Shown piece after piece: positions 6,381-54,920 of a stretch of 64,000 bases of DNA (position 1 is the stretch's first letter; each line of letters opens with the position of its first letter). The DNA is taken from assembly GCA_951406725.2 (NCBI GenBank), contig OX597821.1:48732001-48796000 (forward strand), in the 5' to 3' direction. This stretch comes from Octopus vulgaris (taxonomy: Eukaryota). The notes beneath the pieces are model-generated. The model worked only from the letters and a program-made list of their open reading frames with translations, did not search any database and was not told the origin of the DNA. The position numbers and the translations under genes were made by a program.

Positions 6381-6552
6381 TATAGCCTCTTGTTCGAGAC
6401 TATAATAGAAGACACTTGTCCAAGGTACCACGCAGTGGGACTGAACCTGGAACCATATGATTGGGAAGCAAGCTTCTTACCACACAGCCACGCCTGCGCC
6501 TATACATGTTCAGGATTCGTTCGTGTGTTGGATAAATTTTATTGTGACTTAC

Positions 6553-6851
6553 CTCCATCATTTTGGTTACCTTCCTGATTCCAGCTGCCGTATCTGTTCC
6601 GTCTTTGGGATGATGCAGACGATTTGCTAGAAACTTTAACGTTTCCTTCGAGTGAAATTTTTTCAAGCCAATAACATCTCCAATATTGCTCGAATAAACA
6701 ATAATTCCGATATGTATTGTGTTTAGACCGATGTCAAAACTACCGATCAATTCTTTCACGAAATTTTTGCTTCTCACCCAATCGTTGTCACTGATGCTAT
6801 CAGAACCGTCAAGTAAAATGACAACATCTACAGGTTGATTACATTTCATTT
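6553..6851 (-). CDS. vWA-domain gene, N-terminal vWA exon (collagen VI/matrilin/Pif-like vWA)
   Basis: tttcag acceptor and GTAAGT donor. Reads CNQPVDVVILLDGSDSIS...FVKELIGSFDIG...IGIIVYS...GTDTAAGI, with the MIDAS DxSxS motif and Thr. 299 nt, phase 1-0. Confidence 0.92.
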
Positions 6852-7482
6852 CTGAAACAAAACAAATTCTTAATGAAAGTGTTATAAAGAAAAACCTAAT
6901 TTAAGGGAAATATTCGATTTGTAGCTAATTATAATCGTTTTTTCTTTCTTTTAGACAACGGAGAGGCAGAGCCTGTGACCATTTTACAGAGTGTCAGGGG
7001 CCTCGTGTGTGAGGAAGTCATCCTCAAACTGGAGACCTTACCTGAATGCTTACAACTATGTCGACTCTTAAAGGCACCCAGAGTACAGTACTATGGTGTT
7101 ATACTGGATGATGGATTGAGTCTGTTACTAATGTACGCTGTGGCGTGATATGAGCTCAAAACGCAAAGAGCAGAATCAAAAATGCCGCCCGATATACTGC
7201 CAGTGTTGCTAGTGCAAAGCCCTGGATTGATAGGCACGATTTGAATTCACACCGCTAACTAACCAGCTTCTATTTAGCATTGATGAACGGTCAAAATGTC
7301 TATTCGTGATCATTGTATATTCTGCCCAAACCTAATATAATTTGAATTACATTATTTAGCGTGTACTTCCATTTTAAACACAGTAGATTGTAATTTGATA
7401 GAAATATGGTTGCTATTTTTAACGGAACGAATTCACCGGTAGTTTGATATTATTTTCTGTTATATTTCAATTTGTGCGTGTA

Positions 7483-15309: not shown

Positions 15310-16070
15310 TTAAGTACGCCGCATAAAAAGTAATCGAGAATCCTGGATAAGTATCACATTTTCAAGCCCAAACTTCTGCTCCATCCAAAGTAACAGAGAG
15401 TTCTTCAGGATGTCCAGATACTCCTTTGTGCCAATCGTCAAGCCAGACCCAATCAAGTGTGGATCTATGACACTTCCACCGCTCGCTACGGCTCCAAATA
15501 CCATCACAGAAGCAGGATTCTTAGTCTCAAACACAAGGGGATGTCAGAAGGGTTGTATGCAATCACTCGAGAATTTCTCCCATTCACCTCAGCGTTCACA
15601 GTGAACTTCACGTCCATAAACACGAGAGTTTTCCCTGTGCCTTGATGATTGATGAATGGCAGAAACTTTGGGCATCTCTCGGCTCTGATTTCTAAGTTGG
15701 CTGTTAGGAAGTGACGGGGTCGTCGAACATAGTTAATCATGCCAAGGTTCCTGTTCACAGTTCTGGACAGGGACACATTGCGTTTCTTTGCGAGAATTGT
15801 CTTGGATGTGGATGGATTAGTTTCAATCGAGCGTTTGAGGCCGGCGAGAAACTTTGGATTGCGCTTGGAATCGCTTCGAGTCTTATGTTCTTTTCTATCA
15901 ATCTTTCCCTCTCCTTTAAATTGTTTATACACACGATAAACTGTTGCTTTTGGAAGTTTCGTCAACATAACAATTTTATTGGCACTGTGCCCGGCACGCG
16001 CTAAAACAACAATGGCTGAACGATTCTGCTGTCGAGTCAGTTTGCTATTTACCCGTAGAATTTCAGGCAA
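15310..16070 (-). mobile_element. Truncated Tc1/mariner transposase (maT/DD37D-like)
   Basis: HTH N-terminus (AIVVLARAGHSANKIV...KATVYRVYKQF), TKNPASVMVFGAVASGG, YLDIL, IQDS. Frameshifted and ends after the second Asp. Confidence 0.85.
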
Positions 16071-38770: not shown

Positions 38771-39008
38771 TTCCTCCCTCCCTCCCTCAGATAAAGCGAT
38801 CTGAGTTCGATTTCTAAGAGGTTTTGCAATTGATAAAAACTGCTACTACAAAGGTTTATAAATTTGCTCAGAAGAAACAAATGCAAAATATATTATAATA
38901 TAGGGGAAGTAACTGAGGAATTACTTTAAGAAAATAAAAATTTTGGTTAAAATGTGATGAGTTAATGATGGAGTAAAAGTAATTGAAATATCAAACAATT
39001 TTCTTTAG

Positions 39009-39416
39009 TACATTATTTACATTTGACGGATATTTGTCCGCATCTTGTTTATTGTTGACACGTTTCGGCTGATATTCCCTCCAGCCTTCATCGGGTGTCT
39101 TGGGGAAATTTCGAATCTGGATTATTATTATCATTATTATTATTATTATTATTCAGGTCACTGCCTGGAATCGAACTCAGAATCTACGTAGTGGTTAAGA
39201 GTGTGGGCTACAAACCCCAAGATTCTGAGTCCAATTCCAGGCAGTAACATCGAAATATACCTTAGGAATGAGAACCCAAGTTTGAAATTTCCCCAAGACA
39301 CCTGATGAAGGCTGGAGGGGAATTAACCCGAAACGTTGGGTTAACAACAAACAAGATGAGGACAAATATCCGTCAAATGTAAATAATGTACATAATTCCT
39401 CATCTCTTAACTATAG
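39009..39416 (+). mobile_element. Palindromic tRNA-head plus hammerhead retroelement with 12-bp TSD
   Basis: aattttctttag at 38997-39008 and 39417-39428. ~110-bp outer inverted arms each carry a hammerhead motif. Central tRNA-like head (tagtggttaagag...gagtccaattcc) with an inverted partial copy. Confidence 0.8.
39297..39342 (+). ncRNA. Minimal hammerhead motif (partly decayed)
   Basis: GACAC-CUGAUGA-aggcug...aaccc-GAAAC-GUU^ggguu, with palindromic AACGUU in place of stem III. The inverted copy (39055-39099) has an intact stem II but a CCGAUGA core. Confidence 0.62.
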
Positions 39417-39545
39417 AATTTTCTTTAGGTAAAGCAATTTATGATTGCTGCCTTCCTCTTCAACTTTTGATCTATTTTTGGAAAATGTTTGTTAATTTTA
39501 AATTTCTAAATATCTGAGAGAGATATAAGCAGTGGTGGTACAATA

Positions 39546-39808
39546 GAGCGGTTGTATACTGTCAACTTAACGTGACAGTCCCATAAAGGGAATCACACCA
39601 CTGCTATTTAGCCCTAGGAAGCATCAACGCTTCCTGTCGGCTTTGACACATTTCCTGGATGGGGGTGCTTGTCTCCTCCTTGTAAACATAAGGACACAGG
39701 AAATGTGTCAAGGCCGACCAGAAGCATCAATGCTTCCCAGGGCTAAATAGCGGTGGTGTGATTCCCTTTATGGGACTGTCACGTTACGTTGACAGTATAC
39801 AACTGCTC
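39546..39808. mobile_element. Fold-back MITE with ~110-bp arms
   Basis: gagcggttgtatactgtcaac...acacatttcctg is mirrored by caggaaatgtgt...gttgacagtatacaactgctc. Confidence 0.8.
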
Positions 39809-45304: not shown

Positions 45305-46400
45305 GAACAGCTTTTAGGGCCTGGAAAGACGTTGGCCCTCTGACCTCATGCAGTAGTAGACAAAGGTAGAAGCACTCTTGTTGAGTGGGATGCACTGTGT
45401 ATACTCGCCCAGGGCAAGTGTGAAACTTAATGCCAGGGTATCCATGAACATTTTGACCTGCTTTCCGTGGGGCCCATTTTTTTTCCTATCCAAGTGTAGT
45501 ACGATGGAATCTGTGGATACAGCAAGGTTTGAACGAATGGATCCACTTGACAAAGCTTGAAGAATGCAGTGAGTGTGCTATCCCTTGGTTCCTCTGCCAA
45601 CAGAGAAGCATTAGCATCGGTGAAGTACACTCTTTGACCATTTTCCAGGTGCACTGCAAGCTGTTGAATGGCGGGGTGTCGTTGGTGAATTGGAAATCCA
45701 AAGATGCGCCAGAAAACCTCATTGCTACTTATGTACCGTCCCACCTGATAATGCGTCACCTCATCCTGGCAGTATTCTTGCTGAAATCCAAACATTGCAG
45801 CGTCAGAACCCTTGTTTACATATTTGCAAACGTACTTGATGGATTTAACGGAGTTGCAAAACTCAACGTTGATGTGGGCATTGAAAGTCTTTGACAGGAG
45901 TGGGCAGTATGGAACAATCCATCTATTATCAATATCATGCTGTCCGATAGTTGCTATGAAACCTCCGTCTTCTGGTTTTCTGCGTCTGTATGATGGATAC
46001 CCATCAGCACCTGTCTGAGTTTCTTGTAGGAACCTCCTTGGAAATCTTTTTGAACATATGCTGTCCTTCAAGCATGGTGAGTTTATGTTGAATCCATGCC
46101 ATGTACCATGTTTGCTTTAACTATTTCGTATAGTTCTTTGTCTAAAGCTGGATCAGGAAGCTCTGCAGAGATTATGTTGTCGATGTCATTGGAATTGATC
46201 TTCGCTGAGAGCCAAAGCAGGATATGAGCATGTGGAAGGCCCTTTTTTTGCCAGTCGATTGTGTACATGTCACATTGTATGGGCCCAAAGACTTGCCCTT
46301 TTTGTATGAGTTCCATGAGAGAGATTAACTTCAGATGGAAAACTCGGGCGTTGAGATTCCGGTTCGAACGTAAGGCAGGTTTGAAAGTGTTCCCAACAGT
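45305..46400 (-). mobile_element. Helitron RepHel fragment (HUH Rep domain)
   Basis: WQKKGLPHAHILLWL (HUH), MVHG, CSKRFPR, DGYPSYRRR, DNRWIVPYCPLLSKTFNAHINVEFC, SIKYVCKYVNKGSD, RVYTVHP. Frameshifted. Helitron-type 5' end TCTTTATATATAAAACTG at 47620. Confidence 0.95.
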
Positions 46401-46924
46401 TATTAGTTGTAGTGGTAGAGTGTTTATGCCGAATATATACGTATGCATGTATATATATATGTATGTATGCCTGTATATATGTACAAAATCCACTGAGAAG
46501 GCTTTTGTCGGTCTGAGGCTACAGCAGAAGACACATGCCAAGTCACCACACAGTGGACTGAACCCAGGACCATGTGTTTGGAACGTAGTTTGTTACCACA
46601 CAGCCACACCTGCCCCTATGTATGTGTGTGTGTGTGTATGGGTAGATATATTATGCATGTATATATGTGTATATATATGTGTACATATTACATGTACATC
46701 TATATATACATCTACACATAAAATACAAAATACAAAGTTATATCTTGATATCGCTAGTGATAACAATACTCAAAGTATATAACAGACTGGAATTGTAGGC
46801 CCGTCTCTTGCAATTTCGATCAATTAGATCTTGTCCTCCCTCTTGTATAGAAGTGTAGGGCTGCAGCAAATTTCATCTTTGGACTTTCTTCTATTGAAGG
46901 TATTTTAACAAAAATGCTTCTGTA

Positions 46925-51532: not shown

Positions 51533-52912
51533 TCATCATCGTTTAACGTCCGCTTTCCATGCTAGCATGGGCTGGACGATATTGACTGATGGCTGGCGAA
51601 CCAGATGGCTGCATCAGGCTCCAATCTTGATCCGGCAGAATTTCTACAGCTGGATGCCCTTCCTAACGCCAACCACTATGAGAGTGTAGTGGGTGCTCTT
51701 TACGTGCCACCGGCACGGGGGCCAGTCAGGCGGTACTGGCAATGATCTCGCTTGAATCTTTTTACACGTGCCACTAGCACAGGTGCCAGTGAAGCGACGT
51801 TGGTAACGATCACACTCGAATGGTGCCTTTTTACGTGCCACGTGTACGGAAGACAGTTGGCTGTTCTGGCAACAATCACGCTCGGATGGTGCTCTTGGCA
51901 CCCTATTAGCACAGGCACAAGTGCCAGTAAGGCGACACTGGTATCGATCATACTCGAATAGCCGCTCTGTCAACGATCACACTCGTATGGTGCCCTTTGC
52001 ACCCTGCTAGCATGGATGCCAATCATCGAATTGATTTTGATTTCACTTGCCTCAACAGGTCTTCGCAAGCAGAGTTTAGTGTCCAAAGAAGGAAAAGGTA
52101 TACATAAGCGGGCTGGTTACACTCCTGGCATAGGCCACAGGTTATGGTCTCATTTGGCTTGCCGGGTCTTCTCGAGCACAGCATATTTCCAAAAGTCTCG
52201 GTTGCTAGTCATTTCCTTGGTGAGGCCTAATGTTCGAAGGTCGTGCTTCACCACTTCATCCCAGGTCTTCCTGGGTCTACCTCTTCCGCAGGTTCCCTCA
52301 ACCGCAAGGATGTGGCACTTTTTCACACAGCTATCCTCATCCATTCTCGCCACATGACCATACCAGCGCAAACGTCTTTCTTGCACATCACATCTAATGC
52401 TTCTTAGGTTCAACTTTGCTCTCAAGGTACTTACACTCTGTCGAGTAAGCACACTGACATTACACATCCATCGGATCATACTGGCTTCATTCCTTGCGAG
52501 CTTACACATCTCCTCAGCAGTCACAGCCCATGTTTCACTGCTGTGTAGCATAGCTGTTCGTACACATGCATCATACAGTCTACTTTTACTCTGAGCGAGA
52601 GGCCCTTTGTCACCAGCAGAGGTAAGATCTCTCTGAACTTTGCCCAAGCTATTCTTATTCTAGCAGCTACACTTTCAGCGCACCGTCCTCCGCTACTGAC
52701 TTGGTCATCTAGATAATGGAAGCTATCAACTACTTCTAGTTTTTCTCCCTGGAATGTGGCAGAAGTTGGTCTCTGTGCGTTTTCAGTGTTTATCACTCCC
52801 GAGCATCTGCCACATACAAAAACTATCTTCCCAGTTAGCCTTCCTTTGATATTACTGCACCTCTTATGTGTCCATAGCTTACACTGGGTACATCTTATAG
52901 AGTTTCTCCACA
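51533..52912 (-). mobile_element. 5'-truncated RTE-clade LINE (RT end, C-terminus, 3' UTR, (GAT)n tail)
   Basis: LEVVDSFHYLDD, RIRIAWAKFRE, LYDACVRTAMLHSSETW, RRLRWYGHVARM, GRPRKTW. One frameshift noticed. Confidence 0.92.
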
Positions 52913-54920
52913 TGCCTGACAGACATGATTAGTATGGTGTGTAACACCACCAGTGGCCAGGTTGTCACTCATCTGTCTCGCTTTATGACTACGAAGATGA
53001 CTCTTGAGTCCAGCTTTACTGAGGCAGGGTCTTGCACAGACACTGCATGTCAGCATCATAGGAAGACCCTTCCCACCTGGAAGTGTAACAGCGATGCCCT
53101 TCCTGACATCACCTCCTTACTTTCTCATGCACAACTCGAGATTTCTCAAAAGTAGCTGTCCCCTCAATAGCTATGCCCTCCGATGTGTCAGGAGAAATGC
53201 AAGCATTTCATAAGGAAGCCTTCAGCAAGTCCTTATACCTCTTTTTTGGTTTATGTGGGGGTCGTTCTCCTTTAGCTAACTCCCCATAAAAGAGTCGTTT
53301 TGGCATCCTTGAATCCTTCATCCTGACCACTCCTCCATCTGAGCCTTTGCTTTAACATAAGAGCTTCTATACTTTCACACCGAGAGCCTTCCAATATTTC
53401 AAGATCACTGATGCGGTCCTCACACTTAATGCCATAGATCCGTCTGAGACACATCTGATGGAAACGTTCCAGTTGTTTAAAGTGGTATCGATATGAGACC
53501 CACGTCTCATATAGAGAAGAGAAGGGAGCACACATGCCTTGTACACCTTTATCTTTGTCTTTCTGCATATGTCTCGCCGACTCCAGAGGCGCCTTTCTAG
53601 CCTTCCGAAAGGATCACTTGCTTTCCTAATTATGTGTGGAATTTCATCATCCAAATTGCTAAATCTATTAACAGTGCTTCCCAGGTAGACAAACTGATCA
53701 ACTACATCAAGTCGTTTACCATACACATAGATATTTGGTACACTATACTGCTTACCAGGGGCAGTTTGGTACATGACAACAGTTTTCTTGAGACTCACTG
53801 TCAATCCTAAGGCAGTGCAAGCATCAGAGAGTGCATTCAAAATGTGTTGCATATCAATCTCTGTGTGCGCTACTAGATCACAATCATCTGCATACAAAAG
53901 GTCTCTTATGATAGAGGTAAATACCTTTGTTTTTGCAGCAAAGCACCTGATATTAAATATGCTGCTAGAGGTAAACACCATATCTACAGTTTCTGAATGC
54001 AATATAAACACCATATCTACAGTTTCTGAATGCAATATAGAAAACCATCGCAAAATATATGGCAAATAGGGTCAGTGCCAGAATATCTCCCCGTTTCACT
54101 CCATTTTGTATTGAAATGGGCTCTGACATTTTCCCCTCTAACATTAACCCTACCCTTCATGTCTTCATGAAAAGACCTAACCAAAGCAAGGAACTTTTGA
54201 GGACAGCCAAGTTTCTGGAGGACTTTCCACAATGCTTTTCTATTAATGGTATCAAAGGCTTTTGTCAGATCGACAAAAACCTGATACAAATCCAGACCCT
54301 GTTCCACACACTTCTCCTGAAGCTATCTAGCTGAAAAGATCATATCAGCAGTGCCACATCCCACATGAAAGCTAGATTGACTTTCTGGAAAAACACAATC
54401 TGCAACGTGCTTCAGCAGACAATCCAGAAGTATTCTGCATAAAACCTTTCCTATGATAGAAAGCAATGATACTCCCCTATAGTTACCACAATCATTCCTG
54501 TTGCCCTTTCCCTTATTCAAGACCACAGTTACTGTATCTCTCCAGTCCTCAGGTACAGATTCACTAGTCCATATCTTACCAAACAAAGAGTGAAGTTACT
54601 GCAGAAGTTTCTCACCGCCATGCTGTAACAACTCCGCATGTATGCTATCCATACCCGGAGATTTCCCATCATTCATCCTTGAGACAGCCACTGCAACTTC
54701 CTCCAACTTTGGTGGTTCTGCGAGTGCTGCCTTCATGGGTAATCCAGGGATGAGATTGAGAACATCCTCACTAACTACAGACTACTGATTCAAAAGTTCA
54801 TCAAAGTGTTCTTGCTACCATCGCAGAATTCCTTGTGAATCACGAAGAAGTTCTTTATCATCCCTGCTTCGAAGTGGTGTCATCAGAGAAGACGTCGGTC
54901 CATAAACTTCCAGTATGCCT
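52913..54920 (-). mobile_element. Second RTE-clade (BovB/RTE-1-like) LINE, decayed RT to C-terminus
   Basis: KGKGNRNDCGNYRGVSLLS, FVDLTKAFDTINR, LLYADD, FVYLGS, C-terminal CSVCARPC..GLKSH. 33-bp tandem duplication at ~53972-54040. Confidence 0.92.

Follow-up and report, generated by a model that had tools for sequence, protein, structure and literature searches.

A palindromic insertion in the Octopus vulgaris genome is built from pLTR pieces of a coding Penelope-type family with a tRNA-like head and a hammerhead

We analysed a 64,000-nucleotide stretch of the Octopus vulgaris genome (hereafter the window) and traced the origin of an insertion at positions 39009 to 39416 that joins a tRNA-like head to a hammerhead motif. 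At this locus a Penelope family has left a dead palindrome of solo-pLTR type, and no new class of SINE is involved; with high confidence, the head-hammerhead unit is the pLTR of a protein-coding Penelope/Poseidon-type element (PLE, Penelope-like element), here present as a solo pLTR. Our best explanation, held with moderate confidence, is that pLTR pieces of this coding element were inserted head to head and that the tRNA-like head probably acts as an internal RNA polymerase III (Pol III) promoter. Two family-level features are new in the literature that we searched, the tRNA-derived head with A and B boxes and a recurrent deletion of the triplet at the predicted hammerhead cut; the inversion, the tail, the target-site duplication (TSD) and the hammerhead itself are already known Penelope features.

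Anatomy of the insertion and its parent family

The insertion consists of an inverted and a forward copy (Table 1), as the initial annotation had described. The exact 12-bp repeat that brackets it is expected by chance at ~3e-5, allowing 15x15 positions of boundary slack, and the end of the element also reads on into the first 2 nt of the repeat (microhomology). Positions 39008-39129 pair with 39267-39391 and 39157-39185 with 39220-39248, confirming the inverted partial copy, and the 25-nt 3' extension of the forward copy is indeed missing from the inverted arm. A minimal hammerhead is present where it had been proposed, with the same predicted cut. Compared with the family majority sequence, the two arms (inverted 39008-39185, forward 39187-39416) match at 89-97%. 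The locus copy is damaged: half of its A box is gone and its B box is mutated, stems II and I of the forward hammerhead are mispaired, and the inverted hammerhead carries a U-to-C change in the core together with a 3-nt deletion at the cut triplet.

Table 1. Features of the insertion, in window positions
Feature	Positions	Strand	Basis or remark
Left TSD, 12 nt	38997..39008	+	exact direct repeat with 39417-39428
Inverted pLTR arm, coding part (tail-less 3' end, ORF N-terminal codons, hammerhead)	39008..39129	-	90.4% to family majority, 125 nt
(AAT)n microsatellite of inverted arm; variable spacer between head and coding part	39130..39153	-	sequence; spacer shared with most copies
Inverted arm, 3' half of tRNA-like head (B box)	39154..39185	-	96.9%, 32 nt
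8-nt palindrome, head-to-head junction of the arms	39184..39191		sequence
Forward tRNA-like head, 5'-truncated	39187..39248	+	88.7% to family majority; tRNA alignment
Partial A box	39187-39194	+	
Mutated B box	39227-39238	+	
Penelope RT-endonuclease ORF, first ~50 codons, ATG at 39268; overlaps hammerhead and tail	39268..39416	+	frame continuous with RT in L102 and L108; majority ORF; N-terminus of homologue P0001
Minimal type I hammerhead	39297..39342	+	stem I 39297-39301/39338-39342
Hammerhead core	CTGATGA 39302-39308, GAAACGTT 39330-39337	+	predicted cut after 39337
Penelope tail, forward arm only	39392..39416	+	43/50 family inverted arms stop 24-35 nt before 3' end
Right TSD, 12 nt	39417..39428	+	sequence

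Several other features were seen in the window. A second inverted repeat (39546-39808; 112-nt arms, 91% complementary, 39-nt loop) lies 120 nt downstream of the Penelope insertion, is unrelated to the element and is possibly a MITE. On the minus strand, a frame at 6400-6900 resembles a von Willebrand A domain exon, and a host gene may span the window. By eye, fragments on the same strand resemble a Tc1/mariner transposase (15504-16070), a Helitron Rep/helicase (45427-46592) and RTE-like LINE reverse transcriptases (52150-54071).

The unit had been proposed to use Penelope machinery, and its genomic copies bear this out by linking it to a reverse transcriptase (RT)-endonuclease ORF with RVT_1 matches in a pLTR-ORF-pLTR layout. 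The genome searched (2.8 Gb, 227 contigs) holds 4347 exact matches to a 26-nt piece of the element's 3' end. Among the 30 best DNA matches, 3 extend upstream into a frame with RT and endonuclease-like motifs, and a search with that frame returned 30 loci, of which L101, L102 and L108 show the pLTR-ORF-pLTR arrangement; copies run downstream into the ORF start, as in these three, and upstream into the endonuclease end. The family majority contains an uninterrupted 832-codon frame (an ORF of ~835 codons) that begins upstream of the hammerhead, so that hammerhead and tail are coding. The family pLTR is made up of the tRNA-like head, (AAT)n and the first ~50 ORF codons with the hammerhead and the tail.

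Pfam RVT_1 matched 2 of the 5 ORF stretches scanned, and the two endonuclease stretches and the N-terminal stretch gave no Pfam match. Near the C-terminus we noted by eye a motif with CxC and His residues that we take to be GIY-YIG-like; DNA of the ORF matched none of 30 PF01541 loci. The linker between RT and endonuclease has only scattered Cys residues and no Zn-finger linker of the Neptune/Nematis kind, unlike that of a 781-aa family described below. The Penelope/Poseidon clade name is only our inference, since the tree included no named reference elements. Seven full-length homologues (745-847 aa) were found, the best being 48% identical to the family protein, and homologue P0001 has a similar, hammerhead-coded N-terminus. 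Copies diverge from the majority by a median of 3.8% outside CpG (n=275), and 0 of the 30 ORF loci keeps an intact ORF. DNA sets containing the unit bear five organism labels, no RNA set among the indexed runs was listed as containing it, and a search of viral contigs found no relative of the element. The literature searched contained neither a tRNA-headed or Pol III PLE nor a description of this family, which Repbase and Dfam, outside the search, may list; the main text of a recent octopus repeat annotation makes no mention of hammerheads (PMC13282606).

The initial annotation had read the unit as a non-autonomous tRNA-hammerhead element. Its use of Penelope machinery stands and a Pol III head is plausible, but the separate SINE does not survive, the unit being the pLTR of a coding element and the supposed SINE body being N-terminal coding sequence of the ORF. 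Seen at a single locus, the head, body, defined 5' end and TSD do give the look of an independent tRNA-derived SINE fused to a PLE 3' end, with the enzyme merely borrowed. Yet coding copies carry the same head, which starts 32 nt past the ORF stop codon, and 12 of the 69 head-anchored copies extend >40 nt into the ORF; ORF-linked copies already contradict this reading, which we consider very improbable. Head-starting short copies and ORF-linked pLTRs have diverged to the same degree (0.037, n=75, versus 0.038, n=28), share their common variants and show no diagnostic substitution between them, so there is no sign of serial amplification from solo copies. As in tRNA-derived SINEs, the distance from the 5' end to the A and B boxes of the head is 10-15 nt, but the unit is not distinct from its coding partner, the head belonging to the ORF-linked pLTRs; instead of the tandem array of a non-LTR retrozyme, the locus is an inverted pair.

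Insertion structure and the hammerhead cut site across the family

The inversion, the one-sided tail and the TSD recur family-wide, in support of the initial annotation. Among 90 loci chosen by position along contig C1 through an exact tail pattern, 50 carry an inverted arm, which in 43 cases terminates 24-35 nt before the family 3' end, and 23 of the 50 palindromic copies have a TSD of at least 9 nt (mode 12 nt; a TA microsatellite accounts for one of them); the same holds for 1 of 50 controls. The proposed linkage of head and hammerhead is likewise found in other copies (55 of 69 head-anchored copies, a set of 70 less one duplicate in which two near-duplicates were retained), and most of those without a following hammerhead region break off within the (AAT)n spacer. 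In PLEs generally, inverted 5' copies and one-sided tails have been reported (PMC8557442), and the two ends of our family, full and 24-35 nt short, correspond to the two sites, one on either side of the tail, at which the anole element is primed internally in vitro (PMC11167929). Paired arms share more substitutions than expected (60/391 versus 20.5).

The consensus hammerhead core is sound: the family majority fits CUGANGA/GAAA/UH, with stems I and II and a palindromic minimal stem III, as a minimal hammerhead of the dimer type, and the core is intact in 133 of 263 pieces. The Rfam check suggested by the initial annotation came out negative, with no hammerhead or tRNA model matching at the locus or in near-consensus copies and the remaining hits being hairpin and microsatellite noise; ARAGORN called no tRNA in the same sequences. 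Neither miss is surprising, the head being degenerate and the ribozyme minimal, and the tRNA and hammerhead labels rest on the comparisons reported here. In minimum-free-energy folding neither the monomer nor the dimer took up the active hammerhead fold, and the core is not conserved in excess among copies (3.5% versus 4.5%), as expected for neutral decay.

A 3-nt deletion at the predicted cleavage triplet stands out, occurring in 51 of 277 pieces (background 1.9%). Genome-wide the tally is 500 versus 4043 exact matches (6 from one tandem array). Overall ~11-18% of copies are affected, and the deletion tops the 339 deletion variants tested, at 27/206 (13%) against 0-3.8% at 10 other microhomology sites. 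The two arms of a pair usually differ in it (24 pairs discordant and 6 concordant, with 4.1 concordant expected by chance; the pair at the locus is also discordant), no substitution is linked to it, and tail-bearing and tail-less arms show no bias (P 0.8). With arms mostly discordant and no linked substitution, we rejected the deletion as a subfamily marker; for the same reasons we conclude that it arises anew in each cDNA.

We consider it fairly probable, judging from these patterns, that the deletion is a scar of hammerhead self-cleavage in vivo; slippage is possible because the site sits in an imperfect GT repeat. Copies with 5' ends just past the cut site (11 of 47 within 8 nt) form a blurred set that we did not use as evidence. 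PLE hammerheads have low activity in vitro (PMC4209133), and the anole study reports that RNA ends at the cut were not found (PMC11167929). The deletion bears on whether PLE hammerheads cleave in vivo and, for any PLE family that bears a hammerhead, the genome sequence is enough to check for it.

The tRNA-like head and how the element may be transcribed

At family level the tRNA-like head is borne out: scored against the SINE consensus of PMC8969392, the A box matches at 11/11 and the B box at 10/11 positions, with a 33-nt spacer. Its best local alignment is to host tRNA-Arg(TCG), with a score of 55, whereas 300 shuffles reached at most 42; the Arg label is tentative, as the comparison covered only 30 tRNA loci and six isotypes.

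Copies pile up at the start of the head. By two methods, 35 of the 69 head-anchored copies begin at -9..+3 of the tRNA-like sequence, and the stop rate is 0.078/nt there, versus 0.009 within the head and 0.002-0.004 at >40 nt upstream. Exact 21-mers number 3681 at +28, 816 at -30 and 708 at -137 genome-wide, a 4.5-fold drop in copy counts across the head start. These 35 ends join the flank (12), an inverted arm ending elsewhere (17), a forward piece (3) or the palindrome partner (3). An RNA 5' end at about -7/-6, which is 13-14 nt upstream of the A box, would explain the pile-up. A 12-nt palindrome is located exactly at the pLTR 5' boundary, and annealing of palindromic ends was rejected as the sole cause, because only 3 of 35 ends join their partner there. 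Copies that start at -7 (L149, L150, L328, L348, L350, L355) often have 3-4 additional bases by which the 5' palindrome becomes longer, a pattern that snap-back extension of the cDNA end would produce. A TATA-like motif lies ~28 nt upstream of the pile-up and overlaps the ORF stop codon, so a TATA-set Pol II start also fits. RNA-seq (3 unstranded raw runs under another species label and 1 contig set) mapped to a full-length-type copy gave equal depth on both strands, which tracked copy number without a pile-up at the start.

Transcription of the coding RNA by Pol III predicts a sense strand free of TTTT. The majority ORF has none in 2496 coding nt, where three codon-aware nulls expect 3.2, 4.7 and 5.2 (P 0.018, 0.005 and 0.002), the depth of the majority sequence being only 7-8 over the first 600 nt; the non-coding part of the majority has not even TTT. 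Single copies contain 21 TTTT runs at 19 sites, 18 of them private. As a control we took a young Neptune-like PLE family of similar composition from the same genome, identified by a PF01541 search, and it has 8-9 TTTT per ORF (2343 nt) in 9/9 copies checked. Related metagenomic ORFs (60 of 79; 19 were too short) contain 300 TTTT versus 278-285 expected; TTTT-free ORFs make up 5 of these 60 (3.0-3.4 expected), and 1 of the 41 with an expectation of at least 3. GGGG is likewise absent from the majority ORF (P 0.09-0.28). The TTTT signal is real but modest. The Neptune-like control family (L191-L199) has many intact 781-codon ORFs and a Cys-rich linker; its 3' repeat bears repeated CCAAT/CRE-like and TATA motifs, and a simple pattern search found no hammerhead core near the ORF start.

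Together, the A/B-box head, the 5' pile-up and the TTTT-free ORF suggest Pol III transcription, possibly of the whole coding RNA. We lean towards the head being the internal Pol III promoter of the element; that Pol III makes the full coding RNA is doubtful. Equally tentative, and unlikely to hold in full, is the most extended reading, in which a 2.7-kb RNA would be made wholly by Pol III from a captured tRNA promoter, with an ORF purged of terminators; this arrangement would have arisen at least twice among Penelope elements (including L216, below), and thousands of genomic copies would carry a 3-nt scar of hammerhead cleavage in vivo. The Penelope element of D. virilis has a LINE-like internal promoter (PMC2377424), and Kojima argues for Pol II as the necessary polymerase of autonomous partners (PMC10886601). 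Being uncapped, a Pol III RNA would also require unusual translation, which counts against the Pol III reading. Self-cleavage can promote cap-independent initiation in other systems (PMC13725137), but the hammerhead cut of the octopus family lies inside the ORF.

A similar layout was seen in a metagenome contig (L216:2811-3025), an intact tandem Penelope-type element with a 2791-nt period and two near-identical ORFs, between which lie both boxes, an (AAT)n stretch and a hammerhead; among 31 control 3' regions it is the single one in which A and B boxes occur together. Each copy has 2 TTTT runs near the ORF start, and the match of its head to the sampled tRNAs is not significant (41 versus a shuffle maximum of 52). 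In the tree this element falls in the same broad clade as the octopus family (support 0.85), with head-less relatives between the two, and the shared layout is probably of separate origin. It is a recurrence of the layout and not evidence of Pol III use.

The family could also be an ordinary Pol II Penelope, in which the head would be a tRNA fragment or SINE relic picked up by the 3' UTR, the 5' boundary would be set by the TATA-like motif or by self-priming of the palindrome, and the lack of TTTT would be chance; we regard this as quite possible, if short of likely. The position of the TATA-like motif favours it, as do pLTR palindromes and TATA/Inr motifs known from rotifer PLEs, which lack a tRNA head and have palindromes at their pLTR 5' ends and Pol II-type motifs (PMC3846280), but in the octopus family the motif is not part of the pLTR, copies that start at the head no longer contain it, and we saw no other Pol II elements inside the pLTR. 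Self-priming fits the two cDNA ends of the palindrome, which co-fold at -13.4 kcal/mol, and the short palindromic extensions of many -7 ends, whereas 29 of the 35 head-start ends are joined to the flank or to non-palindromic partners. The (AAT)n past the head resembles a SINE tail, and zero-TTTT ORFs occur among the controls; against this, the A/B spacing and the distance to the 5' end suit Pol III, and the absence of TTTT had been foretold before its test.

The reading nearest to the initial annotation shares the promoter with our best explanation and divides the work: Pol II would make the coding RNA by read-through or from tandem copies, and the Pol III head would make only short solo-pLTR transcripts, mobilised in trans like a SINE. 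It accommodates the ~4.5 to 1 ratio of short to ORF-linked copies at the head, the promoter and priming site retained in a solo copy and the excess of substitutions shared by paired arms, and in rotifers pLTRs alone are enough for mobilisation in trans (PMC3846280). The short copies, however, show neither a diagnostic substitution nor a different age, and TTTT avoidance spans the ORF, which that model does not require; we judge it rather improbable.

Proposed mechanism and comparison with known systems

Under the best explanation, with an internal Pol III promoter in the head, the RNA start would precede the tRNA-like sequence by 6-7 nt and the A box by 13-14 nt. The element protein would nick both strands of AT-rich DNA ~12 nt apart, and two cDNAs would be primed at two internal start sites bounding the tail, as for the anole element in vitro (PMC11167929). 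If priming took place in the 5' pLTR or the template was a solo-pLTR transcript, only ~260 nt would be copied, up to the RNA 5' end, and microhomology or snap-back would join the two cDNAs head to head into palindromes flanked by TSDs; a start in the 3' pLTR would give 5'-truncated ORF copies. Some templates would have been cut by the hammerhead, and RT may jump the cut on a 2-nt microhomology with the loss of 3 nt.

Non-coding parasites (SINEs, TRIMp3) are known to carry small-RNA promoters, and their coding partners are expected to use Pol II (PMC10886601). If confirmed, a Penelope that codes for protein yet has a Pol III head would break this split between non-coding Pol III and coding Pol II elements; it would also explain how the promoter is retained in single copies that have no tandem partner, and one family would show how SINE-like units originate from a coding element. 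Should the Pol III reading fail, the element would be an ordinary new Penelope family. Such pLTRs are likely mislabelled as SINEs in cephalopod repeat libraries.

The octopus family resembles Poseidon of Anolis carolinensis (PMC11167929) in its pLTR-ORF-pLTR layout, its RT followed by a putative C-terminal endonuclease, its hammerhead overlapping the ORF start, its two 3' ends bounding the tail, its AT-rich targets and its inverted 5' copy; unlike the anole element as described there, it has a pLTR that opens with an A/B-box head, an ORF without TTTT and a recurrent cut deletion. With the minimal PLE hammerheads of PMC4209133 it shares the unpaired base before stem II, the G-C closing pair, the palindromic stem III and the short stem I, its predicted structure being no different, and those hammerheads likewise occur mostly in solo or inverted copies. 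A Pol III-type promoter followed by a hammerhead is also found in Sm-alpha and Sj-alpha of Schistosoma (PMC6765202), which are tandem and non-coding, whereas the octopus unit lies within a coding element and occurs mostly as dispersed inverted pairs. The TRIMp3 elements Cassandra, Helenus and Ajax also have a small-RNA-derived Pol III promoter in a terminal repeat but are non-autonomous LTR elements of <1.3 kb (PMC10886601), in contrast to this 2.7-kb coding PLE.

Non-LTR retrozymes (PMC7229834; bioRxiv 10.64898/2026.07.22.740005) are likewise ORF-less hammerhead pLTR derivatives, of which the octopus family has one tandem array; they form tandem arrays and are described in these accounts without report of a tRNA head, whereas the octopus family consists mainly of dispersed palindromes. 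That array (L380, G000:C2:2734247-2735998) is retrozyme-like, with head-less hammerhead-tail units of ~215 nt, all of which bear the cut-site deletion.
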